A DNA stretch of 64,000 nucleotides from Acidimicrobiia bacterium (GCA_016932695.1 JAFGCH010000081.1:15404-79403); one strand, 5' to 3'. Numbered from the stretch's first letter, positions 880-60,933 are shown. Numbers and translations are program-made. Notes: generated by a model from the sequence alone, not told the origin.

Positions 880-1005
880 GCCCTCCTTCTCCCATCCGGA
901 CTGTCACCGTCGGCCCCGGGATCACACCGGGTCGGCCCCCAAAGGGGGGTTCGCGGGCTCTACCGCCGGTCGGGAATTGCACCCCGCCCTGAAGAAGGGC
1001 CTAAC
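880..1005 (-). ncRNA. FMN riboswitch (RFN element) in the ribD leader
   Basis: The minus-strand leader reads ...CCUUCUUCAGGGCGGGGUGCAAUUCCCGACCGGCGGUAGAGCCCGCGAACC...GGCCGACGGUGACAGUCCGGAUGGGAGAAGGAGGG. It matches the conserved RFN cores GGGCAGGGUGAAAUUCCCGACCGGCGGUA, AGCCCGCGA and GCCGACAGU..GGAUGGGAGAAGG, and lies directly 5' of the ribD ATG. Confidence 0.75.
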
Positions 1006-18866: not shown

Positions 18867-19508
18867 CTACTTGATGATCGACTGCCCCACCGCCAGGGTG
18901 AACACGCTGTCGCGGTACATGAACACTCCGCTGCTGGTGGCCAGGCTGATCACCTTGAAGTCGGTGGCGAAGGTGTCCCCGACGCCGACGGTGTAGGTCT
19001 GGCCGTCCACGGTCAGCACCGCCTTCTTCACTCCGCCTTCGTCGCGGATCTCCAAGAGCGACACCCGCTTCCCGCTCGGCTGGTCGCCGGTGGTGCTGGT
19101 GGTGCTGCCTCCGGAGGTCGTGGAGGTAGAGGTGGAGCTGGTGGAGGACGTGGTGCCGCCGCCGGTCGTGCTGCTGGTGGAACCGCCGGTGGTACTCGTA
19201 GTGGAACCATCCCCGCCGGTCGTCGTGGAGCCGTCGGGGAGGGTGGTGCTCGTCGGGCTGGTGACCAGAGGAGCGAAGGGATCGCGCGGTTGAGCGACGC
19301 GGAAGCCCCCCGCCGCCGGAATCGTACCGGCGGAGCCGCTCGGGCCCGCCGTCCCCGGGTCCGGGGCCCCGGGCAGACGCCCGTCTCCTCCCAGGGAAAG
19401 CACTCCCGAGGAGGCCATCAACCACACCGAGGTCCCCGCCGTTCCCACCAGCAGCACGGCCACCAGGATCGCTACGAAAGTGCGCCGCAAGGTCCCGCGT
19501 CCCATGTC
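18867..19508 (-). CDS. PilP-like pilus assembly protein: N-terminal signal/anchor, RDPF motif, Ser/Thr/Gly-rich linker and C-terminal beta domain; the real start is the internal MGRGTLRR
   Basis: MGRGTLRRTFVAILVAVLLVG (TM), QPRDPFAPL (PilP-type motif), about 70 aa of S/T/G repeats, then a conserved-looking about 70-aa C-terminal domain. It sits immediately downstream of pilO. Confidence 0.5.
   Translation of the reverse strand, partial: DMGRGTLRRTFVAILVAVLLVGTAGTSVWLMASSGVLSLGGDGRLPGAPDPGTAGPSGSAGTIPAAGGFRVAQPRDPFAPLVTSPTSTTLPDGSTTTGGDGSTTSTTGGSTSSTTGGGTTSSTSSTSTSTTSGGSTTSTTGDQPSGKRVSLLEIRDEGGVKKAVLTVDGQTYTVGVGDTFATDFKVISLATSSGVFMYRDSVFTLAVGQSIIK
19090..19290 (-). repeat. Low-complexity coding repeat (Ser/Thr/Gly-rich linker of the PilP-like protein)
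   Basis: Degenerate repeats of ggt/gga/gtg...acc triplets on the plus strand encode TTSTTGGSTSSTTGGG... in the minus frame. Confidence 0.5.
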
Positions 19509-20187
19509 AGGCCTCCGCGCTCGGGCCGGTGGTCGGCGGCACGGTGGAAGGGACGATCGTCGTCTGCGCCTCCGGCGCCATCTCTTGCTCGCCCGTGCCC
19601 TCACCGGTGTTGCCGGCGCCCCCGTCGTCCGGGAGGGGTTCCAGCGGCACCAGGTCGGCGAGGGTGTACAGCCGCAAGCTGAGGCTCGCCGACAGCGTGG
19701 TCGCCCCGGTCTCATCCTGGCCCGACGACACGGCGATGGCGTCCACCCGCACCAGCCGATCCATGTCCATGATCCCGAAGAGGAAGCCCAGCACCTCGAA
19801 GAAGTCCCCGTCGATGGTGGTAGCCACCGTGATCTGCCGCAGCTCGGAACCGGTGATCGCCACCGGCATGGCCGGCGCCAGGTTCAATAGCTGCACTCCG
19901 GTGGTGTCACAGAGGGCATACACGTCGTCGATGAACTCATCGAGTCGGGGTTGCGCCGGGATCAGGCTCTCCATCTGCCCGATGCCGGCTAGGTACTCGA
20001 CTTCGGCGTCCCGGATGGCCTGCAGCTGGGTCACCTGGGCCCGCAGCGCGGCTTCCTGCTGCTGCGCCGCGTCCAGGTCGTCGCGCGCCTCGGCGATGCG
20101 GCCGTTGCGCGGCGAGATGAGGAAGAACCACCAGGCCACCGCCAGCACCAGCGCCAAAACCAAGGTGAGGATCACCCAGCGGCGCAT
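19507..20187 (-). CDS. pilO: Type IV pilus assembly protein PilO
   Basis: N-terminal TM (WVILTLVLALVLAVAWWFF), coiled-coil (LDAAQQQEAALRAQVTQLQAI), then a PilO-type globular domain. The pilM-pilN-pilO order matches. Confidence 0.65.
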   Translation of the reverse strand: MRRWVILTLVLALVLAVAWWFFLISPRNGRIAEARDDLDAAQQQEAALRAQVTQLQAIRDAEVEYLAGIGQMESLIPAQPRLDEFIDDVYALCDTTGVQLLNLAPAMPVAITGSELRQITVATTIDGDFFEVLGFLFGIMDMDRLVRVDAIAVSSGQDETGATTLSASLSLRLYTLADLVPLEPLPDDGGAGNTGEGTGEQEMAPEAQTTIVPSTVPPTTGPSAEA

Positions 20188-20188
20188 G

Positions 20189-20803
20189 TCAGGGCACCTC
20201 CGGGATCAGCTCCTGGGCGCGGTCGGTGACCGCCCCCGCAGTGAGCGCCGCCGAGGAGCTGAAGTTGACCACCACCTCGTCGCCGATGGCGCTCTCCGAA
20301 GCCATACTCACCCAGGGCCCGGTGACACCGGCGAACCCGCCCGCGCCCAGGGTGCGCAGCCATTCCGAAACGTCCGGGAACTCGAAGGCCACTCCGGTGA
20401 AGGCGACCTGGCCCACCACCCCGCCGATCTGGCCCTCGATGATGCTCCCGTTGAACGACTCCATCCACACCCGCTCGGGAAGAAGCCGGGAGAGGTCGTT
20501 GAGGAAGATGCCCCAGTCGACGTCGTTGGCCAGCGCTTCCTGCACCAAGCCCGCCTTCGAGCGAAACTCCGCCTGCAATGCGGCGGCCTCCGCCAGTGAG
20601 GCCACCTCCTGCTCCAGGCCGGCGTTGACCTCCTGCTGCAGCTCGACGTCGGCCCGCGCTGCCGAAACACGGGTGTTCCAGTAGAACACCCCGGCCACCA
20701 GCACGAGCACGTACGCGATGGCGGCGAGTATCAACAGCCCAATGAGCCGCCGACGGGTTCTCTCTTCGGCGACCTCGGGGGGAAGCAGGTTGATGGGGCG
20801 CAC
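20189..20803 (-). CDS. pilN: Type IV pilus assembly protein PilN
   Basis: MRPINLLPPEV...RR then a TM segment, which is the hallmark PilN N-terminus (INLLP). It is about 200 aa and lies between pilM and pilO. Confidence 0.7.
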   Translation of the reverse strand: MRPINLLPPEVAEERTRRRLIGLLILAAIAYVLVLVAGVFYWNTRVSAARADVELQQEVNAGLEQEVASLAEAAALQAEFRSKAGLVQEALANDVDWGIFLNDLSRLLPERVWMESFNGSIIEGQIGGVVGQVAFTGVAFEFPDVSEWLRTLGAGGFAGVTGPWVSMASESAIGDEVVVNFSSSAALTAGAVTDRAQELIPEVP

Positions 20804-20806
20804 GCG

Positions 20807-21919
20807 TCAGTCCTCCCGAGCCACGTGGGCGAAGCGATTGCCGGGTGGGACCACGTAGCTCCCCCACAACGCCAGGCCCACCGCCGCCGGCAGCACGGGC
20901 TGCAGGTCGAGCAGCTGCGATTCGGTCATGTGCACCCGACCCACACTGACGTGGTCCAGGACCCGGACCGGCTCCACGCGCGTGCCCAGCGCCCGCGCCA
21001 CCCGGTTGGCCAGATGGGGAAGCCGCGCCCCGTTCCCCGACACCAGCAGGCGCTCCAGCGAATGCTCCCCCGCCTGGGTCAGGTAGTAGTTCACCGAGCC
21101 GCGGATCTCCTCGATCAGGCCGTCGGCCGTGCGGGTGAGCAGCCGGCGCAGCGCCGCTTGCTCGTCGTCGCCTTCGGGCAGGCCGGAGGGCACCACTCCC
21201 GCCACTCGCTTCTTCTCCTCGGCGTCCTCCCGACTGAGCGACGCCCCGGCCATGAGCGCTTCGGTGAACTGGTTTCCCCCGGTGGGCAGGATCCGGACGA
21301 AGCGGGTGATACCGCCGCGCACGACGGCGATCTGGGACATAGATGCCCCGATATCCAGGATTCCTTGGGGCCCGTCACCCCCCAGGGTGAGATCCGCCCC
21401 GAACGCCGCCCGCACTAAGCCGAAGGTCTGCAGGTCGATCGAGAGCACTTGCAGCCCGACCTTGCGCGCCACCCCCACCAGGGACTCCACCATCTCGCGC
21501 TGGGCCGCCACCACCAGTATGGAAAGCATGAGGTCGCCGTCGGGAGTGCCGAACTCCTCGAGCGGCACGTAGTCGAGCAGCGCCTCCTCGACCGGGATCG
21601 GGATGGCGTCCTGGACCTGGTACGGCAGGGCCTCGAGCAGCTCCTCCTCCTCCAGGTGAGGCACGTCGACCTGCCGGACGATCACCCGCTGGTTGGCGAT
21701 GCCCACCACAACCCGCTTGCGCGGCAGGCGATGGCGCTTCCACAGCGCGCTCACTGCCTCGGTAACGGCGCCCTGATCGACGACGTCGCCGCCCTGGACC
21801 GCTCCCGGCGGCAGCGGCATCTCGACGAACCGGCGCAGCACCGGAGTGGGCTTGCCGGTTTCGACTACGGCGGCCCGCACCGCCTCCGAGCCAATGTCGA
21901 GGCCGACCGCGATCGGCAT
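20807..21919 (-). CDS. pilM: Type IV pilus assembly ATPase-like protein PilM (actin fold); the real start is the internal MPIAVGLDIG
   Basis: VGLDIGSEAVRAAVV..., ...ILDIGASMSQIAVV.GG, N.YL and LLVSGNGARLP are PilM/FtsA-like motifs. It is followed by pilN. Confidence 0.8.
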   Translation of the reverse strand: MPIAVGLDIGSEAVRAAVVETGKPTPVLRRFVEMPLPPGAVQGGDVVDQGAVTEAVSALWKRHRLPRKRVVVGIANQRVIVRQVDVPHLEEEELLEALPYQVQDAIPIPVEEALLDYVPLEEFGTPDGDLMLSILVVAAQREMVESLVGVARKVGLQVLSIDLQTFGLVRAAFGADLTLGGDGPQGILDIGASMSQIAVVRGGITRFVRILPTGGNQFTEALMAGASLSREDAEEKKRVAGVVPSGLPEGDDEQAALRRLLTRTADGLIEEIRGSVNYYLTQAGEHSLERLLVSGNGARLPHLANRVARALGTRVEPVRVLDHVSVGRVHMTESQLLDLQPVLPAAVGLALWGSYVVPPGNRFAHVARED

Positions 21920-22080
21920 CACTCCTCCGTTGTGGCCGCCCGGGGCGGCTCCTCGCTCGATCACACCGTGGTAACTACACGGGTGTCAGGCAAAAGGCTA
22001 CACAACGGACCGCGCGCCTCCAAGGATCTGGGCTGATCCTGCCGAGCGCGGGCCGCGCGAGGACCGCGCGCCTAAGGTGG

Positions 22081-22851
22081 TCAGCCCAGGTACCAGCCGG
22101 CGATGGTCTCCCCCCAAGCCAGGGCCAGCGCGGCGCCGACGACCATAGCCGGGCCGAAAGGGATCGCATCCTTGCGCCCGGCCCGCCGGGTGACGAGCAG
22201 GCCCGCCGCCACCAGCCCTCCTACGGCAAAGGCGGCGAACGCCCCCACCGCCAGCACGCCCCAGGATCGATAGGCCAGCACCGCCCCCAGGAGCAGGCCC
22301 AGTTTCACGTCGCCGAACCCGAAGCCGCCCCGCGCCGCCAGGGCCACCAGGAAGAGCAGGGCGAAGTACGCCGCCGCTCCCCCGGCGGAGCGCGCCCAGG
22401 CCATGGGTTCTCCGTCCAGGAAAGCCGCCGCCCCCAGCAGCACCAGCGTCACCGCCGCCCCCGGCAGCAGGATGCGATCGGGGATCCGCTTGACGTCGAG
22501 ATCCGTCAGCGTCAGGGCGATGGCGACTGCGGCCGCCCACCAAAACGCCGGCAAGGCCCACGACGGCCCGAGCAGAAGGGCCAGGCCGGCGAAGGCAGCC
22601 CCCGTGCCGGCTTCCACGAACGGATAGCGCACCGAGATGCCGCTCCCGCAATCGCGGCACCGGCCTCGCAGCAAGAGCCAGGACAGCACCGGGATGTTGT
22701 CCCGGGCCCGGATCTCATGGCCGCACGCCGGGCAAGCCGACCGGGGGCGCACCACCGACTTCCGCAGGGGGACGCGATAGGCGACCACGTTGACGAACGA
22801 CCCGGCCACCAGGCCGAGCACCGCACCCACGATTGCCAGCCAACCTGTCAC
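22081..22851 (-). CDS. pilD: Prepilin peptidase (A24 family)
   Basis: The Cys-rich N-terminal zinc module (CPACG...CRDCG) follows N-terminal TMs, with multi-pass membrane helices and conserved Asp positions. It aligns to PilD/TadV. Confidence 0.85.
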   Translation of the reverse strand: MTGWLAIVGAVLGLVAGSFVNVVAYRVPLRKSVVRPRSACPACGHEIRARDNIPVLSWLLLRGRCRDCGSGISVRYPFVEAGTGAAFAGLALLLGPSWALPAFWWAAAVAIALTLTDLDVKRIPDRILLPGAAVTLVLLGAAAFLDGEPMAWARSAGGAAAYFALLFLVALAARGGFGFGDVKLGLLLGAVLAYRSWGVLAVGAFAAFAVGGLVAAGLLVTRRAGRKDAIPFGPAMVVGAALALAWGETIAGWYLG

Positions 22852-22964
22852 CGCCGGTCACCTCCTGCTCCGCTCGCCGGCTCGAGGCCCCCGTCTCACA
22901 GCATCGGACGTGCGAAGGCGAAGGTGAAGGGGTTGATGCCCGGCGGCCTGCCACGCCGGCCGGG

Positions 22965-23432
22965 TCAGAAGCCGCCCTGGTGGTACCCGGCGGGAATCAC
23001 CGCCGGGCAGTCGGCACCGGAGAGGTCCGTGGCCCCGTAGTGAGTTCCCAGTGCGGCGCTGTCCCAAATGGAGAAGACCCGTCCCGAAGCCGAGTCTCGC
23101 GTCAGGCACACGACCTGCGGGTCGGCGTCGTTCAGGTCCACGTACACCCCATCGGCCGGGTCCAGGCTCAGCCAGGAACCCGGGCGCACCGCCCGCAGAA
23201 CACCCCAATCGGCGGTGTAGGCCCCCTCCTCCAGCCACACCATCTTCTCCGCCAGCAGGATGTTGCGCAGATCGGTATGGGCGGCTCGGTCCTGGGCCGC
23301 GTGGCGAACGCCGAGGAAGTAGGGAATGGCCACGGCCAGCAGCACCGCCAGGATGGCCGCCACCATCATCAGCTCGATCAGGGTGAACCCCACATCACCC
23401 CTCGGCCGGTGTTTCACGAGACCCCTCCACAA
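22965..23432 (-). CDS. Type IV pilin (paralog 1)
   Basis: Class III signal ...RGDVG/FTLIELMMVAAILAVLLAVAIP, and a C-terminal disulfide-bonded region (C...C). Confidence 0.8.
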   Translation of the reverse strand: MWRGLVKHRPRGDVGFTLIELMMVAAILAVLLAVAIPYFLGVRHAAQDRAAHTDLRNILLAEKMVWLEEGAYTADWGVLRAVRPGSWLSLDPADGVYVDLNDADPQVVCLTRDSASGRVFSIWDSAALGTHYGATDLSGADCPAVIPAGYHQGGF

Positions 23433-23439
23433 GCGGGCT

Positions 23440-23465
23440 GGGGGCGGGCCGTCGGCCCGCCCCCA
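23440..23465 (-). terminator. Perfect 11-bp GC hairpin (GGGGGCGGGCC gac GGCCCGCCCCC) immediately 3' of pilin paralog 2
   Basis: Inverted repeat seen directly in the sequence. There is no U-tract, which is common for high-GC terminators. Confidence 0.45.
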
Positions 23466-23490
23466 GCAACTCGGTAGACGTTGGGTGTGC

Positions 23491-23955
23491 TTACCAGCCG
23501 CCCTGGACGTAGCCGGCCGGGGCAGCCGCCGGGCAGTCCGCGGCCGACAGGTCGGTGGCGCCGTAGAAGGTGCCCGCCGTCGCGCTCTCCCAGATGGAGA
23601 AGGTGCTCCCCGAATCGGAATCGCGCACCAGGCAGACGATGTCCGCGCTGGCGGCGTTCAGGTCCAGGAAGACACCGTCCGCCGGGTCGGCGGCGATCAC
23701 CGCGTTCGGCTCCAGAGCAGTGATGTCGCCCGCGGTCTGGGTGTAGTCGCCGTCTTCCAGCCAGAAGGCCTTCTCGGCGAGCAGCACGTTGCGGACCTCG
23801 CTCTGGGCCGACCGGTCCTGAGCGGACTTGCGGAAGCCGAGGAACGAAGGGATGGCAATGGCGATGAGGACTGCAATGATCATCACCACGACCATGAGCT
23901 CGATGAGCGTGAAGCCCTCGCTCCCGGCCAGCCGCTTGCGGATGGCCTTGGTCAT
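23491..23955 (-). CDS. Type IV pilin (paralog 2, candidate major pilin)
   Basis: MTKAIRKRLAGSEG/FTLIELMVVVMIIAVLIAIAIP, a strong SD (GAGGAGG) 8 nt upstream of the ATG, and a stable terminator hairpin downstream. Confidence 0.8.
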   Translation of the reverse strand: MTKAIRKRLAGSEGFTLIELMVVVMIIAVLIAIAIPSFLGFRKSAQDRSAQSEVRNVLLAEKAFWLEDGDYTQTAGDITALEPNAVIAADPADGVFLDLNAASADIVCLVRDSDSGSTFSIWESATAGTFYGATDLSAADCPAAAPAGYVQGGW

Positions 23956-24066
23956 CTTGGAAACCTCCTCAGGTTTCTCGGTCCCGGACCGGGGGTTCCC
24001 GATCCGCAGGCTTTATCGGCCGCGCCGCGACGCTTCTTGAGCGGGTTGCGCACCCCCGAACGCGCC

Positions 24067-24091
24067 GCAGCCGGGCTCCCGGCCCGGCTGC
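24067..24091 (-). terminator. GC-rich hairpin (GCAGCCGGGC ...GCCCGGCUGC) 3' of pilC and 5' of the pilin gene promoter region
   Basis: Inverted repeat seen in the sequence, with no U-tract. Confidence 0.35.
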
Positions 24092-24110
24092 GGTTGCCTC
24101 GATGCTCCGC

Positions 24111-25343
24111 TTACCGCTGGATCAGGTTGGCGATGCTGAACATCGGCAGATACAGCGAGATGAGGATGCCGCCCACGCCCACGCCCATCACCACGATCAG
24201 GAAGGGTTCGATGAGGCTGGTGAGGGCGTTCACCGAGTCGTCGACCTCCTGGTCGTAGAAGTCCGCCACCTTGGCCAGCATGGCGTCGAGGGCGCCAGTC
24301 TCCTCCCCCACCGCCATCATGTGGGTCACCATCGGGGGGAAGACCTCATGGCGCGCCAGAGGGCCGGCCAGCGACTCGCCTCGCTTCACCGACTCCTGCA
24401 CGTCCGCCAGGGCCTCGGAGACCACCGCGTTGCCCGCGGTGTCCGCCACGATGTCCAGCGCCTGGAGCACCGGCACCCCGGTCCGGCTCAACACCGACAT
24501 GGTGCGGGCGAAGCGGCTGATGGCGATCTTCTGCACCAGCTTGCCGAAGACGGGGAAGCGCAGCTTCAGGCGATCCCACTTGGCGCGACCCGCAGGAGTG
24601 CGGATCCAACGCTTGAAGCCCACGACCGTGCCGATGGTCAGCAACGCCAGCAGCCACCAGAACTTGGTCAGCATCCCCGAGAGGGTCATGAGCATCTGCG
24701 TCGGCGCCGGCAGGGTGCCCCCCAACTCGTCGTACATCCTCTTGAAGATCGGCACGATGAAAAGCAGCATCGCGCTCAGGATGAGCACGAGCAGCCCGAG
24801 GACCACCACCGGGTAGGCCATAGCCGACTTCACCTTGGAGCGCAGCCGCACCCCGGACTCCAGGGTGTCCGCCAGCCGGATCAGAGTCTCGTCGAGGGCG
24901 CCGCCCACCTCCCCCGCCTGCACCATGGCCACGTAGAGATGCCCGAAGACCTTCGGGTGGCTGGCCAGGCTGGCCGACAGACTGGACCCCTGCTCCACCC
25001 GGGTGCGGACGTCGCCGATCACCCCGGCCAGCGTGGGATTGCGGCTCTGCTCCTGCAGGACGGTGAGGGCGCGCACCAGGGTCAGCCCGGAGTTCACCAT
25101 CGTGGCCAGCTGACGGCTGAAGACCGCGACCTCCTTGGCCTTGACCTTCTTCTTCATCCCGGGGAGCTTGACCTCCTTGTCGAGGGTGCCCACCCGGCGC
25201 TCGGCGATCTTGAGGGGCACGAAGCCCTTGTCACGGAGGGTCTTGGCCACCGCAGCCGACGAGGCGGCCTCCATCTGGCCCGTCTGGACGCCGCCCGCCC
25301 GGTCGCGCACCCTGTACTCGAAGGTCATCGTGGGATTGCTCAC
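24111..25343 (-). CDS. pilC: Type IV pilus inner-membrane platform protein PilC (GspF family)
   Basis: 410 aa with two GspF repeats and 3-4 TMs; ...VNALTSLIEPFLIVVMGVGVGGILISLYLPMF... is the typical PilC C-terminus. Confidence 0.85.
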   Translation of the reverse strand: MSNPTMTFEYRVRDRAGGVQTGQMEAASSAAVAKTLRDKGFVPLKIAERRVGTLDKEVKLPGMKKKVKAKEVAVFSRQLATMVNSGLTLVRALTVLQEQSRNPTLAGVIGDVRTRVEQGSSLSASLASHPKVFGHLYVAMVQAGEVGGALDETLIRLADTLESGVRLRSKVKSAMAYPVVVLGLLVLILSAMLLFIVPIFKRMYDELGGTLPAPTQMLMTLSGMLTKFWWLLALLTIGTVVGFKRWIRTPAGRAKWDRLKLRFPVFGKLVQKIAISRFARTMSVLSRTGVPVLQALDIVADTAGNAVVSEALADVQESVKRGESLAGPLARHEVFPPMVTHMMAVGEETGALDAMLAKVADFYDQEVDDSVNALTSLIEPFLIVVMGVGVGGILISLYLPMFSIANLIQR

Positions 25344-26962
25344 AGCCTCCCCCTCCCCAGGAGATCCATCAGTTCTTCGGCATTCGAGGCCCGTTCTGTA
25401 GCCGCGGCCACCGAGATCTGGCCCGCCCGGACCAGATGGGCCAGCGACTGCTCCATGGTGTGCATGCCGTGCTTGCCCCCGGCCTGCATCGCGGTGCGGA
25501 TCTGGTGCACCTTGCCCTCCCGTATCAGGTTTCGCACCGCCGGGGTGGCCACCAGCACCTCCACCGCGGCCACTCGTCCCTTGCCGTTCATAGTCGGCAG
25601 CAGCTGCTGGCAGACGACACCCTGCAGCGACCCGGCCAGCTGCACCCGCACCTGCTGCTGCTGGTGGGAGGGGAACACATCGATCACCCGCTGCACCGTG
25701 CCCGGGGCGTCCTGGGTGTGCAGGGTGGCGAAGACCAGATGCCCGGTTTCAGCGGCGGTCAGGGCAGTGGCCATGGTCTCGAGGTCGCGCAGCTCGCCCA
25801 CCAGAATGACGTCGGGGTCCTGACGGAGGGCGTGCTTGAGGGCGCTGGCGAAACTCACCGTGTCCGAACCCACCTCGCGCTGGTTCACCACGGCCATCTT
25901 GTGGCGGTGCATGTACTCGATGGGATCCTCCACCGTCATCACGTGCACCGCTCGGGTCCGGTTGATCAGGTCGATCAGGGAAGCCAGCGTGGTGGACTTG
26001 CCCTGACCCGTGGCCCCCGTCACCAGCACCAGGCCCCGGCTCATGCGAGTGAACTCCGCCACCACCGGGGGCATACCCAGCTCTTCGAGAGACATGATGT
26101 GCTCCGGGAGGGCTCGCAGCACCGCCCCGACGGACCCGCGCTGGAAGTAGACGTTGACCCGGAAGCGGCCCCGCCCCGCCACCGGGTGGGAGCAGTCGAG
26201 TTCGCGCTTCTCCTCGAGTTCCTCACGCTGGCGTCCGCTCAAGATGCCGTAGATCAGGGTGCGGAGCGTGCCGGGCATCAGCCGCGCGTACCCCTCGATC
26301 GGCTGGATTTCGCCGTCGATCCGTCGCAACGGCGGTGACCCCGCGGTCAGGTGGAGATCAGAGGAGCCCGAGTCGAGCACCAGCTCGAGCAGCTGGTTCA
26401 GGTGGTATCCCGGGTCCTCTCCCTCAACCGGGGCATCGCCCAGCCGCAGTTCCGGGCTCTCCGAGCCGCGCCGGGCCGGACTGCCGTTGGCCGCCGCCGG
26501 CCGGACCGCCGAGCTCCCCGGCCCGTAGACCCGGGCCAGGACGGCCTCTAGGCCCGCCCGGGGTGCCAGCGCGGGCACCACCCGGCACCGGCTCAGCTTC
26601 TCCACCAGAGACAGCTTGGCCCGGTTCATGGGATCGGCCAGGGCGACCACCAGGCCGTCGGGCCCCTCGCGCCGCAGCGGCAGAGCTTGCTGCCCGGTGG
26701 CGGTGGCCGGGTCGAGGCGACCGAGCGCCTCGGCATCCGGCTCCCATCCGTTCGTAGGGTCGAAGTACTCGATACCCAAGCGCTCGGCGGCCACCCGAAG
26801 CACTTCCTCCGGGGGTACGCGTCCCTCCCCGAGCAGCAACCGCGTGGGGTGGGCCCCGGCGTCCTGCGCCCGAGCCACGATGTGCTCCAGGGCCGATGGG
26901 GCGAGCACGCCCCGGTCCACCAGGAGCTGCCCCAACTGCCGGAAGGCCTTCGGATCGGGCAT
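25340..26962 (-). CDS. pilT: PilT-type twitching/retraction ATPase with an extra N-terminal T2SE_N/MshEN-like domain; the real start is the internal MPDPKAF, and its ATG overlaps the pilB stop
   Basis: PilT core: DLHLTAGSPPLRRIDGE, RFRVNVYFQRGSVGAVLRALP, Walker A GATGQGKSTT, Walker B ILVGELRD and AVRNLIREGK, with no tetracysteine. The N-terminal about 190 aa resemble the GspE N-domain (LGQLLVDRGVL...ALEHIV..AQ). Confidence 0.8.
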   Translation of the reverse strand: MPDPKAFRQLGQLLVDRGVLAPSALEHIVARAQDAGAHPTRLLLGEGRVPPEEVLRVAAERLGIEYFDPTNGWEPDAEALGRLDPATATGQQALPLRREGPDGLVVALADPMNRAKLSLVEKLSRCRVVPALAPRAGLEAVLARVYGPGSSAVRPAAANGSPARRGSESPELRLGDAPVEGEDPGYHLNQLLELVLDSGSSDLHLTAGSPPLRRIDGEIQPIEGYARLMPGTLRTLIYGILSGRQREELEEKRELDCSHPVAGRGRFRVNVYFQRGSVGAVLRALPEHIMSLEELGMPPVVAEFTRMSRGLVLVTGATGQGKSTTLASLIDLINRTRAVHVMTVEDPIEYMHRHKMAVVNQREVGSDTVSFASALKHALRQDPDVILVGELRDLETMATALTAAETGHLVFATLHTQDAPGTVQRVIDVFPSHQQQQVRVQLAGSLQGVVCQQLLPTMNGKGRVAAVEVLVATPAVRNLIREGKVHQIRTAMQAGGKHGMHTMEQSLAHLVRAGQISVAAATERASNAEELMDLLGRGRL

Positions 26963-26964
26963 GC

Positions 26965-28635
26965 TCACACCACCACCCTCAGCACCTCTTCGAGCGTGGT
27001 CAGCCCGAGGCGCACCTTCTCCTGCCCGTCCCGGCGCAACGTGCGCATGCCCTGCTCGATCGCCACCTTCTTGATCTCGTCCGAGGGCCGGCGTTCCACC
27101 GCCATGCGCTGGATCTCCTCGGTGACGGTGAGCACCTCGTTGATGGACAGCCGCCCGCGGTAGCCGGTGCCCGAGCACACCTTGCAGCCCACCGCCTCGA
27201 AGATGGTGGCCGGCTCCCCTTCCGGCGGCAGCCCGATCTGCACCCGGACCTCCGAGGAGGCCTCGTGGGGGCGCCGGCAACGCTGGCAGAGCTTGCGCGC
27301 CAGCCGCTGCGCCACGATGCAGTCGAGGGCGGAGCTCACCAGGTACGCCTCCACCCCCATGTCGACCAGGCGGTTGATGGAAGAGGCCGCGTCGTTGGTG
27401 TGCAGCGTGGTGAGCACCAGGTGCCCGGTGAGGGCGGCTTCCACCGCGGTCTTGGCCGTCTCGGTGTCTCGTACCTCACCCACCAGCACGATGTCGGGAT
27501 CCGAGCGCAGAATCGACTTGAGGGCGGTGGCGAAGAGCAGGCCCGCCTTGCGGTTCACCTGCACCTGGGTGACCCCCGCCAGGCGGTACTCCACCGGGTC
27601 TTCCACCGTGATGATGTTGCGATCCGGCTTGTTGAGCACGTTGAGCGCGGCGTACAGGGTGGTGGTCTTGCCGGACCCCGTCGGCCCGGTGACCAGGATC
27701 GCCCCGTACGGCTTGGCCAGGGACTGGGAGAACCTGTCGAGCGCGTGGGGCATGAAGCCGAGGTCCGACAGCTGCAGGACCGCGTCGTCCTTGTCGAGGA
27801 CCCGGATGACCACCTTCTCCCCGTAGATGGTGGGCAGCGTCGCCACCCGAAGGTCGATCGGCCGGTTGTTCACCCGCAGGCCCACCCGGCCGTCCTGGGG
27901 CACCCGCCGCTCGGCGATGTCGAGGTCGGCCATGATCTTCACCCGGCTCACCACCGCTCCCGCCACCGAGCGCGGTGTGGTCATCACTTCGTGCAGCACC
28001 CCGTCGATACGAAACCTCACCCGCAGGTCCTTCTCCCCGGGTTCCAGGTGCAGGTCCGAAGCCCGTTCGTTGACCGCCCGGGTGATCAGCGTGTTGATCA
28101 GCTTGACCACGGGCGCCTCTTCGACGGCGGCCTCGATCTTGGACAGGTCTTCCACCGCCTCCCCGTCGGCCACCATGTCCGCCAAGTCGGCCACCGACTC
28201 GTCGTAGCGCGCCAGACGCCGGATGGCATCCAGGATGTCGCTCCGGGTGGCGATCCGGGGCGAGATGCGCATTCCCGTGATGGCGCGCAAATCGTCGACC
28301 ACCAGCACGTTGCTGGGGTCGGCCATGGCCACTACCAGGCGATCGTTCTCGAAACCGATGGGGATCACCACGTACCGGCGGGCCAGCGACTCCGGCAGCA
28401 GGGCCGCGGCGGCCGGGTCGATGGTGCTCTCGGCCAGGTTCACATACTCCAGGCCGGAGCGACGAGCCAGCACCCGCACGATGTCCGCTTCGGCGATGAT
28501 GTGCTCCTCGACCAGGATGCGGGTCAGGGGCAGGCCCGATTCGGCCTGTACCGCCGTGGCCCGTTCCAGGTCGCGTCGGGTCAGCAGGCCTTCATCGAGC
28601 AGCAACGACCCGATGTGCTCGGCATCTGCAGGCAC
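26965..28635 (-). CDS. pilB: Type IV pilus assembly (extension) ATPase PilB/GspE family
   Basis: N-terminal T2SE_N domain, Walker A GPTGSGKTTTLYA, and the tetracysteine CQRCRRP...CKVCSGTG. It is 556 aa. Confidence 0.9.
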   Translation of the reverse strand: MPADAEHIGSLLLDEGLLTRRDLERATAVQAESGLPLTRILVEEHIIAEADIVRVLARRSGLEYVNLAESTIDPAAAALLPESLARRYVVIPIGFENDRLVVAMADPSNVLVVDDLRAITGMRISPRIATRSDILDAIRRLARYDESVADLADMVADGEAVEDLSKIEAAVEEAPVVKLINTLITRAVNERASDLHLEPGEKDLRVRFRIDGVLHEVMTTPRSVAGAVVSRVKIMADLDIAERRVPQDGRVGLRVNNRPIDLRVATLPTIYGEKVVIRVLDKDDAVLQLSDLGFMPHALDRFSQSLAKPYGAILVTGPTGSGKTTTLYAALNVLNKPDRNIITVEDPVEYRLAGVTQVQVNRKAGLLFATALKSILRSDPDIVLVGEVRDTETAKTAVEAALTGHLVLTTLHTNDAASSINRLVDMGVEAYLVSSALDCIVAQRLARKLCQRCRRPHEASSEVRVQIGLPPEGEPATIFEAVGCKVCSGTGYRGRLSINEVLTVTEEIQRMAVERRPSDEIKKVAIEQGMRTLRRDGQEKVRLGLTTLEEVLRVVV

Positions 28636-36962: not shown

Positions 36963-38173
36963 GCCGCCACCTCCGCGATCGGCACCGTCTCCTCTTCACC
37001 ATCGGCCATGGCCCGCACCGTCACCCGCCCTTCGGCCCATTCCGCCCCCACCACCGCCGCCACCGCGGCGCCCCGCCGTCCCGCCACCTTGAACTGCGCC
37101 TTCACCGAACGCTCGCCGAGGTCCAGGTCGGCAGACACCCCGGCCGCCCGCAGCATGGCCACCAGGTCGAGGGCCTCGGCCCGCCGCCCCGGGTCGGCCA
37201 GCACCACGAACACCCCTAGGCTCCCCTCTCCCCCCTCCTCGGGCATGGCGGCCACGATCCGATCCACCCCCATCGCCAGGCCCACCCCGGGAATGGGCGG
37301 CCCGCCCAGCAACTCGGCGAGCGGGTCGTAGCGGCCGCCGCCTCCGAGGGCATCCTGCGCCGCGGTGTACGACCGGGCCTGGTACTCGAAGACGGTGCGG
37401 TTGTAGTAGTCCAGGCCCCGCACCAGCCGGGGGGCGATCTCGTACGGGATGCCCCGGCGCTCCAGCCCGAGGCGCACCGCGGCAAAGTGCGCCGCCGCCT
37501 CCGGCCCCAGGTGATCGAGGGTGGCCGGGGCCTCGGCTACCACCGCGACGTCGGCTTTGCTGTCGAGGACCCGCAGGGGATTGGTGTCCAAGCGCCGGCG
37601 GGAGTCCTCGGAGAGCAGATCGGCCCGCTCCGCCAGGTAGGCACGCAGCAGTTGCCGGTACTCGACCCGGTCCTCCGGGTCTCCCAGGGAGTTGAGCAGC
37701 ACCATCACCCCCCTGATGCCCAACTCCTCGAGCAGCCGGTAGCCCACCTCCACCACCTCGACGTCGGCATCGGGCGAGGGCTCGCCCAGGTACTCCACCC
37801 CGACCTGATAGAACTGCCGCCGCCGGCCCGCCTGGGGCTGCTCGTAACGAAACATGGGGCCGGAATAGGCGCACTTCAGCACCCCGGTCCGTCCCTCTTG
37901 CAGATAGGCGCGCACCACCGATGCGGTGGCCTCGGGTCGCAAGGTGAGGGCGCGGCCTGCCTTGTCGGTGAAGCTGTACATCTGCTTGGAGACGATCTCG
38001 GTCTCCTCCCCCACCCCGCGAGCGAACAACTCGGTCGCCTCGAAGAGCGGAGTCAGGGCCAGCCCGTAGCCGTAGCGCTCCGCCAGGGAATCGAAGGCGC
38101 GCAGCAAGCGGCGCCAAGCAGCCGACTCGGGCGGGAGCACATCGATGGTGCCCTTGGGGGCCCGAGTGGTCAC
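36944..38173 (-). CDS. hisS: Histidine--tRNA ligase; the ORF-track N-terminus is over-extended, and the likely start is the GTG at 38171-38173
   Basis: PKGTIDVLP, ...YGY..ALTPLFE..ELF.RGVGEETEIVSKQMY.F.DKAGR.LTLRPE.TA and GGGRYD are HisS motifs. Confidence 0.85.
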
Positions 38174-38862: not shown

Positions 38863-40203
38863 CTACAACTCGTCCCAGGCCACCACCACCGGCTGCACGA
38901 TGGTTCCGCCGAAGGGGCTGCTCAGCGGCCCGGAGTTGTTCAGGGTGGTGGTGCCGGCGATGTAGTTGCTGTCGATGTAGTCCGCAGGCGAGTCGCAGGC
39001 GTCCTCGGCCAGGAAGCTGCCCTCAGTCACGTGGGTGTGGCCGGTGCTCTCGAGCTGCTCGTGCGCCGCCAGGATCCCTCCCATATCCGGGTCGCCGGAG
39101 ATGTCGATGTCCCGGCCGGCGGCGACCAGCAGGCTGCTGCCCGGGAAGGGGCGCATCACCGGACTACCGGAGATGCTCACGTCGCCTCCGGTGATGGCCG
39201 GGCAAGTGCCTTTGCCCGCCACCAGCAGGGTCGTGTACCAAGGGGTCACCAGCGACCCCGTGTTGGAGGCCAGGTCCACAGAGCCCTGGTGCACGTAGTA
39301 GACCCCGTCGTGGGGAGTGCCCGAGGTCTGCTGCCACCGGGCTTCGAGGCGGGCGTCGCAGCAGCCGAGGAACTTCCACCCCCGGAAGGTGACGGTGGCG
39401 GTATCCGACGACAGCACGAACCCCGTGCAGGGAGTAGCGCCGGCGGTGTACCCCAGTGAGGAGTGGGCGGGCCCAGCCCTCACTGTGCCGTCGGGGCAGA
39501 GATCAAAGTGGCTGGTATGCCACAACTGCCGGGGATCAATCACCGGGATCTGCACGGCCGCCTGATTGCCCGGCGGCTGGCAGGAGGGGTCTTGGACTAC
39601 CGACCCGGTGACCTTCGCACCTCCGGAGGAGCTCATGCAGCCGTCGATGAAGGTGCTGCCGCCCACCTCGAGGTAGCCGTTGCTGTGCACCCCGACGGCG
39701 CTGCCGCCGAAGACGAGGGGATTGCCGATGAACTGCACCGGGCCCCCGGTCAGCACCCCGTAGCGCGCCTTCCAGCCGCCGAACAGTTCCGCGGAGCCGA
39801 GCCGCGCTTGCACCGCCCGCACCCGGCGCCCGTCGGCCTCCCGTCCCGGAACAAACCCCACGGCAAAGACGGCGCTGCTGCTGGTGGGGCGCACAATCAC
39901 GTACTCGCCGTTGAGCGTGATTGCCACCCCGGCCGAAGGCCGCGCATCGGCGGCTGCCACCACCCAGGCTCGGAGCGCCTCGGGCCCGGAGAACGTGTCG
40001 GGCATGGTCTCACCGGTCGTGAAGGAGGCATCGAGGTTCACCAGAGCCAACCCATGATCCAGGCCCGATTCCGCCACCTGGAGAGCCTGCTCCCACTGGG
40101 CGTCGGAGCGGGTGTTGCCCGTTTGTCGCAGCGAGCGCACGCTGACCACCGACGTCAGCAGGATCAGCGTCAGGCCCAGTAAAACCACCGCCACCACGGC
40201 CAT
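38863..40203 (-). CDS. Hypothetical secreted/membrane-anchored protein, last gene of the minor-pilin operon (candidate pilus tip/adhesin-associated); the real start is the internal MAVVAVVLLG
   Basis: N-terminal hydrophobic anchor without a canonical prepilin motif, a 446-aa Gly/Ser/Thr-rich beta-type sequence, and translational overlap/proximity with the upstream pseudopilin genes. Confidence 0.45.
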   Translation of the reverse strand: MAVVAVVLLGLTLILLTSVVSVRSLRQTGNTRSDAQWEQALQVAESGLDHGLALVNLDASFTTGETMPDTFSGPEALRAWVVAAADARPSAGVAITLNGEYVIVRPTSSSAVFAVGFVPGREADGRRVRAVQARLGSAELFGGWKARYGVLTGGPVQFIGNPLVFGGSAVGVHSNGYLEVGGSTFIDGCMSSSGGAKVTGSVVQDPSCQPPGNQAAVQIPVIDPRQLWHTSHFDLCPDGTVRAGPAHSSLGYTAGATPCTGFVLSSDTATVTFRGWKFLGCCDARLEARWQQTSGTPHDGVYYVHQGSVDLASNTGSLVTPWYTTLLVAGKGTCPAITGGDVSISGSPVMRPFPGSSLLVAAGRDIDISGDPDMGGILAAHEQLESTGHTHVTEGSFLAEDACDSPADYIDSNYIAGTTTLNNSGPLSSPFGGTIVQPVVVAWDEL

Positions 40204-40268
40204 GCCATCTTCCGAATGGCGCCGCCCGCAAGGGGTCCATCGGCTTCGCTGTGCCCAGGGTGCTGGTC

Positions 40269-40802
40269 TCACGGCACGTTCCTCAACGCGACTTCGAAGT
40301 CCAGCGTGCGCGCCCCGTCGCCGGGCCCGGCCACCCCCACGACTAGGTGCACAAAGGCCCGGGTGATCTGCGCCGGCAGCGTGCTGTCGTAGGAAAAGCG
40401 GGACTCGGCGCCCGAGAGGCCCCAGGCTTCCACCCGGCCTGCAGAGCTCCCCACCGTCCGCACGAGAGCGCCGCTCGAGTTGACCGACCACGTCACGACC
40501 TCCGCGGCAGGCATGACCGCGTCCCACTCGTAGTCGATCCAAACGCTGAAAGAGGCCGGGCCCGCGGCGGTGAACCGCCGCGCCTCCCTGACGTCCTTGG
40601 CCAACCGGCTCCGGGCGTCGCGCACCGCTTCCTGTGCGGCATCGTCGGCAGCTTGCACCTGCTCTACCCGGGTTGCTCCGACGAAGACGGAGACCATGGT
40701 GGTGGCGACCAGGGCCATCCCGGCCATAGCCAAGGCGAGTTCGACGAGAGTCAGCCCGGCAGCCTCCCGAGGGAAGAGGCGAATCCGGCGATTGAAACGC
40801 AT
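40269..40802 (-). CDS. Minor pilin / pseudopilin (prepilin-type N-terminal cleavage-methylation domain)
   Basis: ...PREAAG/LTLVELALAMAGMALVATTMVSVFV is a class III signal with Glu at +5. Confidence 0.6.
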   Translation of the reverse strand: MRFNRRIRLFPREAAGLTLVELALAMAGMALVATTMVSVFVGATRVEQVQAADDAAQEAVRDARSRLAKDVREARRFTAAGPASFSVWIDYEWDAVMPAAEVVTWSVNSSGALVRTVGSSAGRVEAWGLSGAESRFSYDSTLPAQITRAFVHLVVGVAGPGDGARTLDFEVALRNVP

Positions 40803-40886
40803 GGCGGCTTTCCGGTCGGAGCCGAGGTATTCATCGACCGGGAATGCACCCGGCTTGAACACCTGTGGCATTCGATTGGGCAACTC

Positions 40887-42218
40887 TCAGTTGCAGGTGC
40901 TCTCCGCTACCGGCAGCGGGCGCAGGCCGTCGAGTAGCGTTGCCGTCGGCAGAAGCCCGGCCGGGTACATCACGCTCCCCGCCGTCACCGCCACCCGACC
41001 CAGTCCGGCATCACCGCCCGCCACCAGGGCTCCCCGCCAGGGGTTGGTCCCCGACAGGGTGACACCCCCGTAGGGGGCATAGGCCACCCCCTGCCAGGCC
41101 CCATCCGTGCCGCCCAGGAGGACGAGAGCGCTCGAGGAGCTGCCGAAACCCACCACCCCACCCTGGGTGGCCGTCGCCAGTCGGTACTGCGCCCCGGGGC
41201 GGAACTCCACCACAGTATCCGAGACCAAGGACGCGGCATTCGAGTACACCGTAGAGCCGTCGCGCAGTCGAATCCCCTGGGTGGCGTACACCGGGCCAGC
41301 GCCGTCGATCGTCACCCCCCCGTAGAAGTCGATGCTCCCCGAGACGTACATGGGGGCGCTGATGGTGACGTTGGTGAACGACTGGTTCCCCGACAGCACC
41401 TGGCCCGTCTGCGCCGCTGCCCGCAGAGCGGAGCGCCAGTCCTCGATGGTCATGGTGTCGGGTAGGACGACCACCACGCCTCCGTTCTGCTCGATCACGC
41501 CGCCGACGTTGCTCGGCAACACGGTCGCCGTCCCCCCGGCCCGCACATCGCCGTCCACCACCGAGGTGCCGTCGGAGTAGTTGAAGTTCGTGTGCACCGA
41601 GGCCAGGTGCGAGGTACCTGGGGAGGTGAGAGTGGAGGCACCGCCGGTGAGCGCGGCATCGCCCGCGGCCACCACCGCGGCGTCGGGGAACACCACCGCA
41701 CCGGTGACGATGGCCCCTCCGGCCGACACGTCGGAGATCACAGTGGAAGCCTGGAAGGAACCCGGCGCCCCGTCTTCCTCCCAAGTCACCAGCACCAGCA
41801 CCCGTCGCAGGTCGGCGGTGAGGCGGGTGACGTAAGCCCAAGTGGTGAACGTGACCCCGCCGGCGGTCGCCACCGACTTGGGGGTCATCAGCCCTCCCTC
41901 GCACACCAGGAGGCTTTCGTCCCCCGGCAACCCGGCTTCCTGGCCGAGCAAGGCCTCGGCAACGGGATCGATGAGGGGCGCCGCAGCATCCACCGACGTC
42001 ATCGCCAGCGCGTTCCAGCTGAGCGCCCGAGCCTGCTCCATCCGCCCCACCAGGAGCGCGGTGGCTTCCTGGCGTAACCGGCTGTCTCGCGAGCTGCCGA
42101 TCACCGACCGCAGCGTGCCGGTGATCGCCGCTACCAGCACCGCGGCGAGCACGGACGCCACTACCAGCTCGATCAGGGAGAACCCGGATTCATCGCGGAT
42201 GCGCAAGGGCCGCCTCAT
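40887..42218 (-). CDS. Large (443 aa) prepilin-like minor pilin
   Basis: MRRPLRIRDESG/FSLIELVVASVLAAVLVAAI is a class III signal. The remainder is a Gly/Thr/Val-rich beta-repeat region. Confidence 0.6.
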   Translation of the reverse strand: MRRPLRIRDESGFSLIELVVASVLAAVLVAAITGTLRSVIGSSRDSRLRQEATALLVGRMEQARALSWNALAMTSVDAAAPLIDPVAEALLGQEAGLPGDESLLVCEGGLMTPKSVATAGGVTFTTWAYVTRLTADLRRVLVLVTWEEDGAPGSFQASTVISDVSAGGAIVTGAVVFPDAAVVAAGDAALTGGASTLTSPGTSHLASVHTNFNYSDGTSVVDGDVRAGGTATVLPSNVGGVIEQNGGVVVVLPDTMTIEDWRSALRAAAQTGQVLSGNQSFTNVTISAPMYVSGSIDFYGGVTIDGAGPVYATQGIRLRDGSTVYSNAASLVSDTVVEFRPGAQYRLATATQGGVVGFGSSSSALVLLGGTDGAWQGVAYAPYGGVTLSGTNPWRGALVAGGDAGLGRVAVTAGSVMYPAGLLPTATLLDGLRPLPVAESTCN

Positions 42219-42225
42219 GATCGCC

Positions 42226-43809: not shown

Positions 43810-44458
43810 TGCGCAGGTTCACCTCCACCAGCAACTCGAAGGGCCCCTCAATCGTGGACACCCCCGGAGGGGCCGCCCGCAGGACGATGGTGACGATGGG
43901 GAAGTTGCACGCCGTCGCCCCCCCGCAGGACGGCACCGTGGTGCGCTCCAGCGGACTACCCGCCCACTTGCTGCCGGCGAACATGGCGGGCGTCGCCGCC
44001 ACCCGCTCCAGCAGTACCACGTCGTTGAAGGGCAAGGTCAGGTAGACCCAATTCGGCGCCGAAGCCGGGTCGGCGGCATAGCGGCGCACCCGCAACTGGC
44101 AGTACTCCCCGGCGCAGGCGGTGCGCTCGTACACGATCTTCTCGGGCCCGGGGAAGTCGTAACGGTCCGAGTAGAAGGTCAGGGCACTCTCGGCCAGGGA
44201 GGCGATGGCCGACATCGTGATTTGCGGGGCCTCGGCCGCTCGTAGTTCGGCGGCCATCTCGGTGACCACTTCCCTGGCCTGCACCTGCAGATCGGCCCGC
44301 TGCCGGGCGTCGGAGGCGTTCTGCCCCACCGCGTTGACTACCAGCACTACTGCACCCAGCACGAGGGTCGACAGGAAGGTGGCCACTCCCATCTCGACCA
44401 GGGTGAACCCCTGCTCGCCGCGAGCGGCACGCCGCAGGCGGGCGATCACGGGCACCAC
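43802..44458 (-). CDS. PilW-like minor pilin
   Basis: ...RGEQG/FTLVEMGVATFLSTLVLGAVVLVV is a class III signal, and the protein is 218 aa. Confidence 0.6.
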   Translation of the reverse strand: MVPVIARLRRAARGEQGFTLVEMGVATFLSTLVLGAVVLVVNAVGQNASDARQRADLQVQAREVVTEMAAELRAAEAPQITMSAIASLAESALTFYSDRYDFPGPEKIVYERTACAGEYCQLRVRRYAADPASAPNWVYLTLPFNDVVLLERVAATPAMFAGSKWAGSPLERTTVPSCGGATACNFPIVTIVLRAAPPGVSTIEGPFELLVEVNLRNA

Positions 44459-60848: not shown

Positions 60849-60933
60849 GTCGAGCACGGCGGGAAGGAAGGTACCACACGGGTAGCCGGCGCCTCGTGGC
60901 AACTACACTCCTCTGGCCCTGTAGGAGGTTTCC

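Follow-up and report, generated by a model that had tools for sequence, protein, structure and literature searches.

A 64,000-nucleotide stretch of DNA from an Acidimicrobiia metagenome-assembled genome (MAG; GCA_016932695.1, JAFGCH010000081.1:15404-79403), hereafter the window, was analysed for a candidate type IVa pilus (T4aP) locus. Ten consecutive intact open reading frames (ORFs) occupy the interval from aroE to aroC on the minus strand (18867-28635), separated from aroE by 173 nt and from aroC by 31 nt. Their GC contents at third codon positions (GC3, 0.84-0.92) are those expected of coding sequence in this window, which has a GC content of ~72%. Families were assigned by Pfam and NCBIfam profile searches against the curated cutoffs of these databases, and nine of the ten products were placed in this way, the exception being a PilP-like protein (Table 1). 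An earlier note, made by a model from the DNA sequence, had proposed ten minus-strand pil genes at this position. The ORFs and coordinates hold, the profile searches place the products in the named Pil families, the ATPases come with a gene set other than that of a type II secretion or Com system, and the motifs quoted for PilB (tetracysteine), PilT (AVRNLIREGK) and the PilP-like protein (RDPF) can be read directly in the translations. The gene described there as pilT-like does belong to the PilT family; what had been overlooked is that its 540-aa product carries a complete N-terminal GSPII/MshEN domain.

PilB, the extension ATPase, has an N-terminal MshEN/GSPII domain, the Walker A sequence GPTGSGKT and the tetracysteine CQRC...CKVC. 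The ATG of pilT was placed 2 nt beyond the stop codon of pilB, with start codon and GC3 confirmed, and pilC overlaps pilT by 4 nt. PilC scores 404-432 bits against PilC and GspF models, below their equivalog cutoffs. In the translation of PilD, an N-terminal CxxC...CxxC domain and a GFGDVK motif are found. The start codon of pilM was fixed from its conservation in relatives together with a codon-level check, and PilN begins with MRPINLLPPE, which we take to be the PilM-binding motif.

Table 1. Features of the pilus locus and of the separate minor-pilin block, in window coordinates
Feature	Position	Strand	Product and evidence
pilB	26965-28635	-	556 aa; PF00437 (T2SSE) 473 bits, PF05157 (MshEN) 87 bits, TIGR02538 630 bits
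pilT-family ATPase	25340-26962	-	540 aa; TIGR01420 480.5 bits (cutoff 319.1)
PilT N-terminal GSPII/MshEN domain (N1D)	26513-26962	-	residues 1-150; PF05157 48.9 bits (cutoff 23.1)
pilC, platform protein	24111-25343	-	410 aa; PF00482, two T2SSF domains, 227 bits
pilA1	23491-23955	-	154 aa; N_methyl, TIGR02532, G|FTLIEL
Hairpin after pilA1	23438-23466	-	read directly from sequence
pilA2	22965-23417/23432	-	N_methyl; G|FTLIEL
pilD, bifunctional A24 prepilin peptidase	22081-22851	-	256 aa; PF06750 116 bits, PF01478 45.8 bits
pilM, actin-like cytoplasmic ring protein	20807-21919	-	370 aa; PF11104 148 bits, TIGR01175 206.5 bits (cutoff 133)
pilN	20189-20803	-	204 aa; PF05137 29.6 bits (cutoff 22.8)
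pilO	19507-20187	-	226 aa; PF04350 34.6 bits (cutoff 22)
PilP/GspC-like gene	18867-19505	-	212 aa; no Pfam match, fold match
Minor-pilin block, six genes	38863-46014	-	between relA and MBL-fold gene
Minor pilin-like, 522 aa	44446-46014	-	GFGVVE; CarboxypepD_reg and Big_1 Ig-like domains
Minor pilin	43802-44458	-	GFTLVE
Minor-block protein, 527 aa	42226-43809	-	N-terminal transmembrane segment only
Minor pilin	40887-42218	-	GFSLIE
Minor pilin	40269-40883	-	GLTLVE
Minor-block protein, 446 aa	38863-40203	-	N-terminal transmembrane segment only

The 540-aa ATPase is a PilT by its catalytic region (480 bits on TIGR01420 vs 169 bits on the PilB model): it is without the zinc-binding tetracysteine, it has an AIRNLIREGK-type motif, and the PilT core (residues ~190-540) includes AVRNLIREGK. 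Residues 1-150 align with the N-terminus of the neighbouring PilB (32% identity, E 1e-12). In an AlphaFold2 model this N-terminal domain is predicted with a local confidence score (pLDDT) above 90 across residues ~10-150, with an alpha/beta subdomain after a four-helix bundle. The best Foldseek matches to this model in the PDB are MshE with cyclic di-GMP (c-di-GMP; 5HTL, E 3e-8) and the GSPII-B domain of Thermus thermophilus PilF, and the PilZ-binding N-terminus of Xanthomonas citri PilB and the N-domain of XpsE are also among the top matches, whose E-values range from 3e-8 to 4e-6. The alpha/beta subdomain matches 2BH1 and 4PHT weakly.

Binding of c-di-GMP by MshEN domains is associated with two 24-residue motifs 5 residues apart, with the consensus (R/K/L)LGxxhhxxGhhxxxxLxxxLxxQ (PMC11731258). 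Motif I of PilB, HIGSLLLDEGLLTRRDLERATAVQ, is a good fit to this consensus, and the PilB N-domain passes the curated c-di-GMP motif model NF053729 (43.2 bits, cutoff 38). In the PilT N-domain, L2, G3 and the hydrophobic positions of motif I are kept, with Q1 and A24 in place of the consensus residues; motif II has H/P, P/L and A/V at positions 1-3 and R at position 24, and the domain gives no match to NF053729. Since the consensus residues are lost and the model is not matched, we infer that this domain has a docking or regulatory role, as in extension ATPases, and does not sense c-di-GMP in the canonical way; the analogy with GspE-N1 and GspL suggests PilM as the partner for docking. As the c-di-GMP-type motif is kept in PilB but not in PilT, the simplest reading would be an effect of c-di-GMP on extension, with the PilT N-domain used for docking. 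The gene at 1044-1973 (minus strand) encodes a REC-GGDEF response regulator (PleD-like, the GGDEF model being matched in part), so components of c-di-GMP signalling exist in this organism, a point that bears on the motif in PilB. An Rfam scan of the whole window revealed no c-di-GMP riboswitch near the pilins.

The combination of PF05157 and PF00437 is found in more than 100 clusters of PilT homologues of ~520-540 aa, and tblastn comparison detected the N-domain in every related locus that reaches pilT. Among 50%-identity representatives, about ten more clusters gave full-length alignments, and the MshEN plus PilT-like domain pattern was present in three of the four full-length clusters checked. 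One of the ten or so, a 542-aa MshEN-PilT-like ATPase with 45% identity to the window PilT, is encoded in a metagenomic locus (L030, 1-11629) along with PilB, a canonical 367-aa PilT, PilC, a sigma70-GGDEF fusion, pilins and a GAF-HD protein; the other strand carries aroQ and a gene for an M24 peptidase close by. As about ten clusters align full-length and the L030 protein belongs to a different pilus locus, the MshEN-PilT represents, to judge from its homologues, a wider PilT subfamily not described so far, rather than an isolated fusion. In the NCBI annotation the window protein (P0010) has 429 aa and begins at Met112, within the MshEN domain. The ~525-aa homologues and the tblastn conservation of the 111 upstream codons indicate that the true start is the ATG at 26962.

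The PilP-like protein consists of a transmembrane helix (residues 3-32), the sequence QPRDPFxPL, a Thr/Ser/Gly-rich linker and a C-terminal beta domain (~145-212). Its family comprises 151 homologues, in which QPRDPFxPL is invariant, the transmembrane helix is conserved, the linker varies in length and the C-terminal domain has ~70 residues. No Pfam domain was found in any of the 151. The named homologues are all annotated as "hypothetical", save one with a generic "membrane protein" label, and the window protein is listed by NCBI as hypothetical protein JW785_06765. It contains no Cys and is therefore not a lipoprotein, so that its anchor is a transmembrane helix like that of GspC, not a lipid anchor like that of PilP. 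AlphaFold2 predicts the helix and the beta domain with pLDDT 95-98, and the eleven best Foldseek matches in the PDB are all PilP, the homology region (HR) domain of GspC, GspB or LspC (E 0.017-0.3, probability ~1, target-normalised TM-score 0.34-0.77), with unrelated folds ranking below. The PilP matches are those of Neisseria meningitidis, Pseudomonas aeruginosa and the Myxococcus xanthus machine model, and the highest TM-score (0.77) belongs to the GspC HR domain 3oss_C. A search of the family profile against PDB sequences gave no meaningful match, and the fold search alone was informative.

In every relative the pilP-like gene lies directly 3' of pilO. Reviews describe PilP as the connection between PilMNO and the secretin and call its lack in monoderms "logical" (PMC6916266, PMC10191384); for Neisseria they report that PilN-PilO is stabilised by PilP, which belongs to a set of eight proteins that suffice for assembly (PMC10191384, PMC6916266). 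By analogy with Neisseria, the most likely role of the PilP-like protein would be a secretin-independent stabilisation of PilN-PilO; a bridge to a secretin is less likely. No pilQ follows the pilP-like gene, aroC coming next after 31 nt, and a secretin domain is absent from all ORFs scanned in the 64-kb window, some small ones lying outside the scan, in line with what the earlier note had reported. A secretin is not expected in monoderms (PMC6668835).

To follow the locus in relatives, two homologue-bearing contigs and 25 genome loci found with the PilP-like profile were compared. In every sufficiently long locus, tblastn gave the order mltG, aroE, pilB, pilT, pilC, pilA, pilD, pilM, pilN, pilO, pilP-like, aroC, aroK, aroB. 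The ten genes stand in the same order between aroE and aroC in L001-L004, L007-L013, L019-L022 and L025, and the shorter contigs agree as far as they extend. Across these loci identity to the window proteins is 68-89% for the PilT core and 61-76% for AroC, and widespread disruption of the pil genes by frameshifts or stop codons was not seen in this comparison. A dN/dS ratio would say little at such distances, with saturated synonymous sites and a GC3 of about 0.9. On this comparative evidence the locus is an old, fixed feature of the clade. The relatives are all MAGs, labelled Acidimicrobiia or Actinomycetota except for two, L016 and L022, which carry the pilP-like, aroC, aroK, aroB arrangement under the labels "Acidobacteria bacterium" and "Kiloniellaceae bacterium" and are probably mis-binned Acidimicrobiia contigs.

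The locus encodes a PilB-type ATPase, a two-domain PilC, an A24 peptidase, class III pilins, PilM, PilN and PilO, of which the last three are specific to T4aP (PMC6916266). It also encodes a PilT, atypical in architecture through the added N1D. A monoderm-type T4aP gene set for assembly and retraction, fixed in the chromosome, is the explanation to which we give a probability of about 0.85. Several observations weigh against this assignment or its details. PilB falls just short of its TIGR02538 cutoff (630 vs 675.65 bits), and as both PilB and PilC score below their equivalog cutoffs, their orthology to the proteobacterial proteins is at family level and not equivalog. The canonical c-di-GMP contact residues are not kept in the PilT N-domain. 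The PilP-like protein has no match to Pfam PilP (PF04351) and reaches 20.3 bits on TIGR03021 (cutoff 34.65), and its Foldseek E-values (at least 0.017) are modest for a 70-residue domain. Gene content is known within the window, and a secretin, a second PilT, or Tad or Com genes may lie elsewhere. Among the related genome loci found there is no cultured carrier, and the pilus is predicted from its genes.

Some of these similarities would also suit a non-retractile filament, that is, a pseudopilus of type II secretion or of ComG-type competence. PilB scores almost equally on the GspE (600 bits) and PilB (630 bits) models, PilC reaches 404 bits on GspF, PilO weakly matches GspM models, and the topology of the PilP-like protein, with a transmembrane anchor and an HR domain, is nearer to that of GspC, whose HR domain gave the highest TM-score. 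However, the PilT-family ATPase with AVRNLIREGK lies far above its cutoff (480 vs 319 bits), PilM is a separate protein past the TIGR01175 cutoff, PilN begins with INLLP, and a GspL fusion is absent. The scanned window ORFs include no GspD; matches to GspL and GspM are sub-threshold, and the PilP-like protein is without a PDZ domain. ComG systems are without PilM/N/O and PilT, and the presence of these proteins together with PilB-type and PilT-type ATPases excludes a ComG-type set. Against Tad and ComG models the scores miss the cutoffs of those models and are far lower than against the PilB, PilT and PilC ones, and the pilins, at 150-154 aa, are not Flp-sized. A non-retractile filament is thus very improbable; DNA uptake as a function of the T4aP is compatible with the assignment made here. 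The 540-aa ATPase might itself be a second extension or dual-function ATPase rather than a retraction motor. A 2024 review holds that the N1D/GSPII domain distinguishes extension from retraction ATPases (PMC11656802), the L030 homologue is encoded beside a canonical 367-aa PilT, which suggests a non-redundant role, and Vibrio cholerae PilT is reported to promote extension of the MSHA pilus (PMC9815625). Set against this are the unambiguous assignment of the catalytic region to the PilT family, the AIRNLIREGK-type motif without the zinc tetracysteine, and a canonical PilB encoded immediately upstream, and we regard a second extension or dual-function motor as unlikely.

It is similarly unlikely that the product of the gene after pilO is a small membrane protein unrelated to PilP, with a beta domain that only happens to look like an HR domain. 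The failures against Pfam, TIGR03021 and PDB sequences and the Foldseek E-values would fit such a coincidence, convergent similarity being common among small beta domains. Yet the eleven top fold matches come from the single functional family PilP/GspC/GspB/LspC, and the position of the gene, right after pilO in every relative, is exactly that of pilP. The layout of membrane anchor, conserved R-D/S-P-F motif, linker and beta domain would also parallel that of PilP, as known from P. aeruginosa. The name PilP-like, given in the earlier note, therefore stands at the level of fold and fails at the thresholds of the sequence models. The same note had left open whether the locus is ancestral or inserted. 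A recently acquired island would accord with the slightly lower GC content at 20-28 kb and 40-48 kb (0.675-0.705, vs 0.71-0.75 in most of the backbone) and with the interruption of a gene order that is conserved in Actinobacteria. Against it, the same genes occupy the same site in every related locus showing both flanks, down to 68% PilT-core and 61% AroC identity, neither border was seen to carry an integrase, tRNA or repeats, and the gaps to aroE and aroC are 173 and 31 nt. Because every related MAG locus examined has the pil genes at this site, the insertion cannot be recent, and we give the island the lowest probability of the alternatives considered here; an ancient insertion at the base of the clade is possible. 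A prepilin peptidase gene presumably also lies between aroE and aroC in Mycobacterium, Corynebacterium and Streptomyces, which would favour an ancestral origin; a genome scan with clade-specific patterns returned only close relatives.

From the gene content, domains, folds, conservation and synteny of the T4aP locus we infer piliation, retraction, partner contacts and ligand binding, and homology with characterised T4aP suggests the following sequence of events. PilD would cleave and N-methylate the prepilins, with PilA1 as the main and PilA2 as a second pilin and with four minor pilins encoded ~10 kb away. A PilB hexamer under the PilC platform, within a PilM ring held by the N-terminus of PilN, would drive polymerisation. 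The PilT-family ATPase would then take the place of PilB and drive depolymerisation, leading to retraction, and PilN, PilO and the membrane-anchored PilP-like protein would form the extracytoplasmic part of the alignment complex. The functions proposed for the MshEN-PilT and the PilP-like protein are tentative, lying between doubtful and, at best, evenly balanced. At the doubtful end stands a more specific combination, in which the machine would be wired unlike any T4aP studied: both motors, each with an N1D, might compete for the PilM ring or be held there via the same interface, only the extension motor having a c-di-GMP site, and a transmembrane-anchored PilP/GspC homologue might persist without a secretin because of a role with PilNO or in guiding the fibre through the cell wall.

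T4aP are known from genomic surveys in monoderm Firmicutes and Actinobacteria, with repeated loss of the secretin (PMC6668835, PMC6916266), and a 2025 study reports T4a genes (pilABCEMOTY1) in free-living MAGs of UBA5794, an order of Acidimicrobiia (PMC12008989). The available text of the latter is a gene inventory and does not mention the position of the locus, the PilT N-domain or the PilP-like gene. The actinobacterial pili studied experimentally are all of the Tad/Flp type (T4cP; PMC6916266). The remark in the earlier note that such pili are rarely described in this lineage is therefore accurate for experiments and not for genomics, and with T4aP already on record in Actinobacteria, including Acidimicrobiia, the locus as a whole is ordinary. 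Like the T4aP of Streptococcus sanguinis and Clostridium spp. (PMC6916266, PMC10191384), it combines clustered pilB/C/D/M/N/O/T without a secretin, fairly long pilin leaders, two pilin paralogues and extra minor pilins. Those systems differ in having no PilP, whereas here a PilP/GspC-like HR protein follows pilO, and in having a standard PilT, whereas here PilT carries a GSPII/MshEN domain. The two departures from described monoderm T4aP are thus the MshEN-PilT and the bitopic PilP/GspC-like protein, both of them conserved. The PilT proteins of the monoderm Streptococcus and Clostridium systems are ~350 aa long.

Diderm T4aP (Pseudomonas, Neisseria, Myxococcus) share with the locus the order pilM-pilN-pilO-pilP, the PilB/PilT pair and the N1D of PilB, and the PilP structures of P. 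aeruginosa, N. meningitidis and M. xanthus match the C-terminal domain of the PilP-like protein by fold. In diderms pilQ follows pilP and PilP is lipid-anchored, whereas here there is no pilQ and the protein has a transmembrane anchor and a long Thr/Ser/Gly-rich linker. GspC of type II secretion is likewise bitopic, with an N-terminal transmembrane helix and an HR beta domain; in contrast to it, the window protein has no PDZ or coiled-coil, no GspD partner and no GspL or GspM, and its context is PilMNO with PilT. The GSPII/MshEN receptors of MshE, PilF and PilB (5HTL, 8PDK; PMC11731258) have the same two-subdomain fold as the PilT N-domain. Here, unlike in those receptors, the domain is fused to a PilT-family core, motif II is without R/L/G, and position 24 is Ala or Arg, not Gln.

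The occurrence of the MshEN-PilT in the whole clade and in at least one unrelated locus cuts across the rule that an N1D marks extension ATPases, and the protein offers a natural probe of motor recruitment to PilM and of motor exchange. The retention of a PilP/GspC-fold protein directly after pilO, in a window where no secretin was found, speaks for a role independent of the secretin and fits the minimal machinery of Neisseria. If the proposed functions are true, the locus would provide the first natural separation of PilP function from the secretin and the first N1D-bearing retraction motor. With the PilT start truncated in the NCBI annotation and the PilP-like protein labelled "hypothetical", automated inventories would miss both features.

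PilA1 has a 14-aa leader ending at G|FTLIELMVV and two Cys near its C-terminus, and its gene is preceded by a strong Shine-Dalgarno sequence, GAGGAGG. For pilA2 the probable start is the GTG at 23417, with GGAGG ahead of it, giving 150 aa and the leader MKHRPRGDVG|FTLIEL. In tblastn, pilA1 and pilA2 match overlapping coordinates in the relatives, that is, the same pilin gene; identity to this region is 65-82% for PilA1 and 49-58% for PilA2, by which PilA1 is the conserved copy and PilA2 a divergent paralogue. One related locus, L001, holds two pilin genes. A GC-rich hairpin, CTGGGGGCGGGCC-GAC-GGCCCGCCCCCAG, without a T-tail, directly follows pilA1 and is possibly an attenuator or terminator; its position fits abundant expression of PilA1, which is probably the major pilin. 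A second perfect GC-rich hairpin, also without a T-tail, lies after pilC (~24063-24088, minus strand). Both hairpins may be attenuators that set the ratio of pilin to machinery expression. A consensus scan for promoters and terminators at 18.5-29 kb gave nothing above shuffled expectation and reported neither hairpin, such a scan being weakly informative for an actinobacterium of 72% GC.

The separate block at 38.9-46.0 kb, also predicted in the earlier note, holds six genes, and class III signal peptides are present in four of the six products. The 522-aa product would count as a "modular" minor pilin, and the pilus may present it as an adhesin. The 527-aa and 446-aa proteins have no Glu5 and no family match, and may be PilX-like or tip-associated components. 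A metagenome scan with one protein of this block found two loci, and the position next to relA was seen in one of them, contig L028 (75% identity), which has the same order secF-relA-mp1-mp2-mp3; this is too few to generalise. In the window the backbone order is relA, the minor pilins, the metallo-beta-lactamase (MBL)-fold gene, hisS, aspS, rarA and alaS, which places the pilus genes at two separate sites of the backbone.

The flanks and the housekeeping backbone described in the earlier note were recovered by domain scans. On one side of the pilus locus lie alaS, ruvX, mltG/YceG and aroE, and on the other aroC, aroK, aroB, an M24 peptidase gene, nusB and pyrR. The wider window contains ribD, REC-GGDEF, PPK2, fmt, def, priA, coaBC, gmk, pyrD and pyrC, together with rarA, aspS, hisS, relA, secF, secD, yajC, tgt, queA, ruvA, yebC, pdxS and fusA. 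Gene calling based on GC3 misplaced several regions, antisense frames also having high GC3, and hisS, fmt and priA were located by hand; hisS (TIGR00442, 411 bits) lies at 36992-38173 (minus strand), where the ORF listing gave only wrong-frame ORFs. The lipid genes that had been named pgsA/patA/pimA, and by which the earlier note had in part typed the host, correspond to a phosphatidylinositol mannoside (PIM)-type cluster at 58337-60902 (minus strand), in which a GT4 glycosyltransferase, a Lip_A-type acyltransferase and a CDP-alcohol phosphatidyltransferase are encoded in a row. The sole Rfam match in the window is a flavin mononucleotide (FMN) riboswitch (RF00050, 112 bits) at 880-1000 (minus strand), upstream of a ribD-type gene with deaminase and RibD_C domains.

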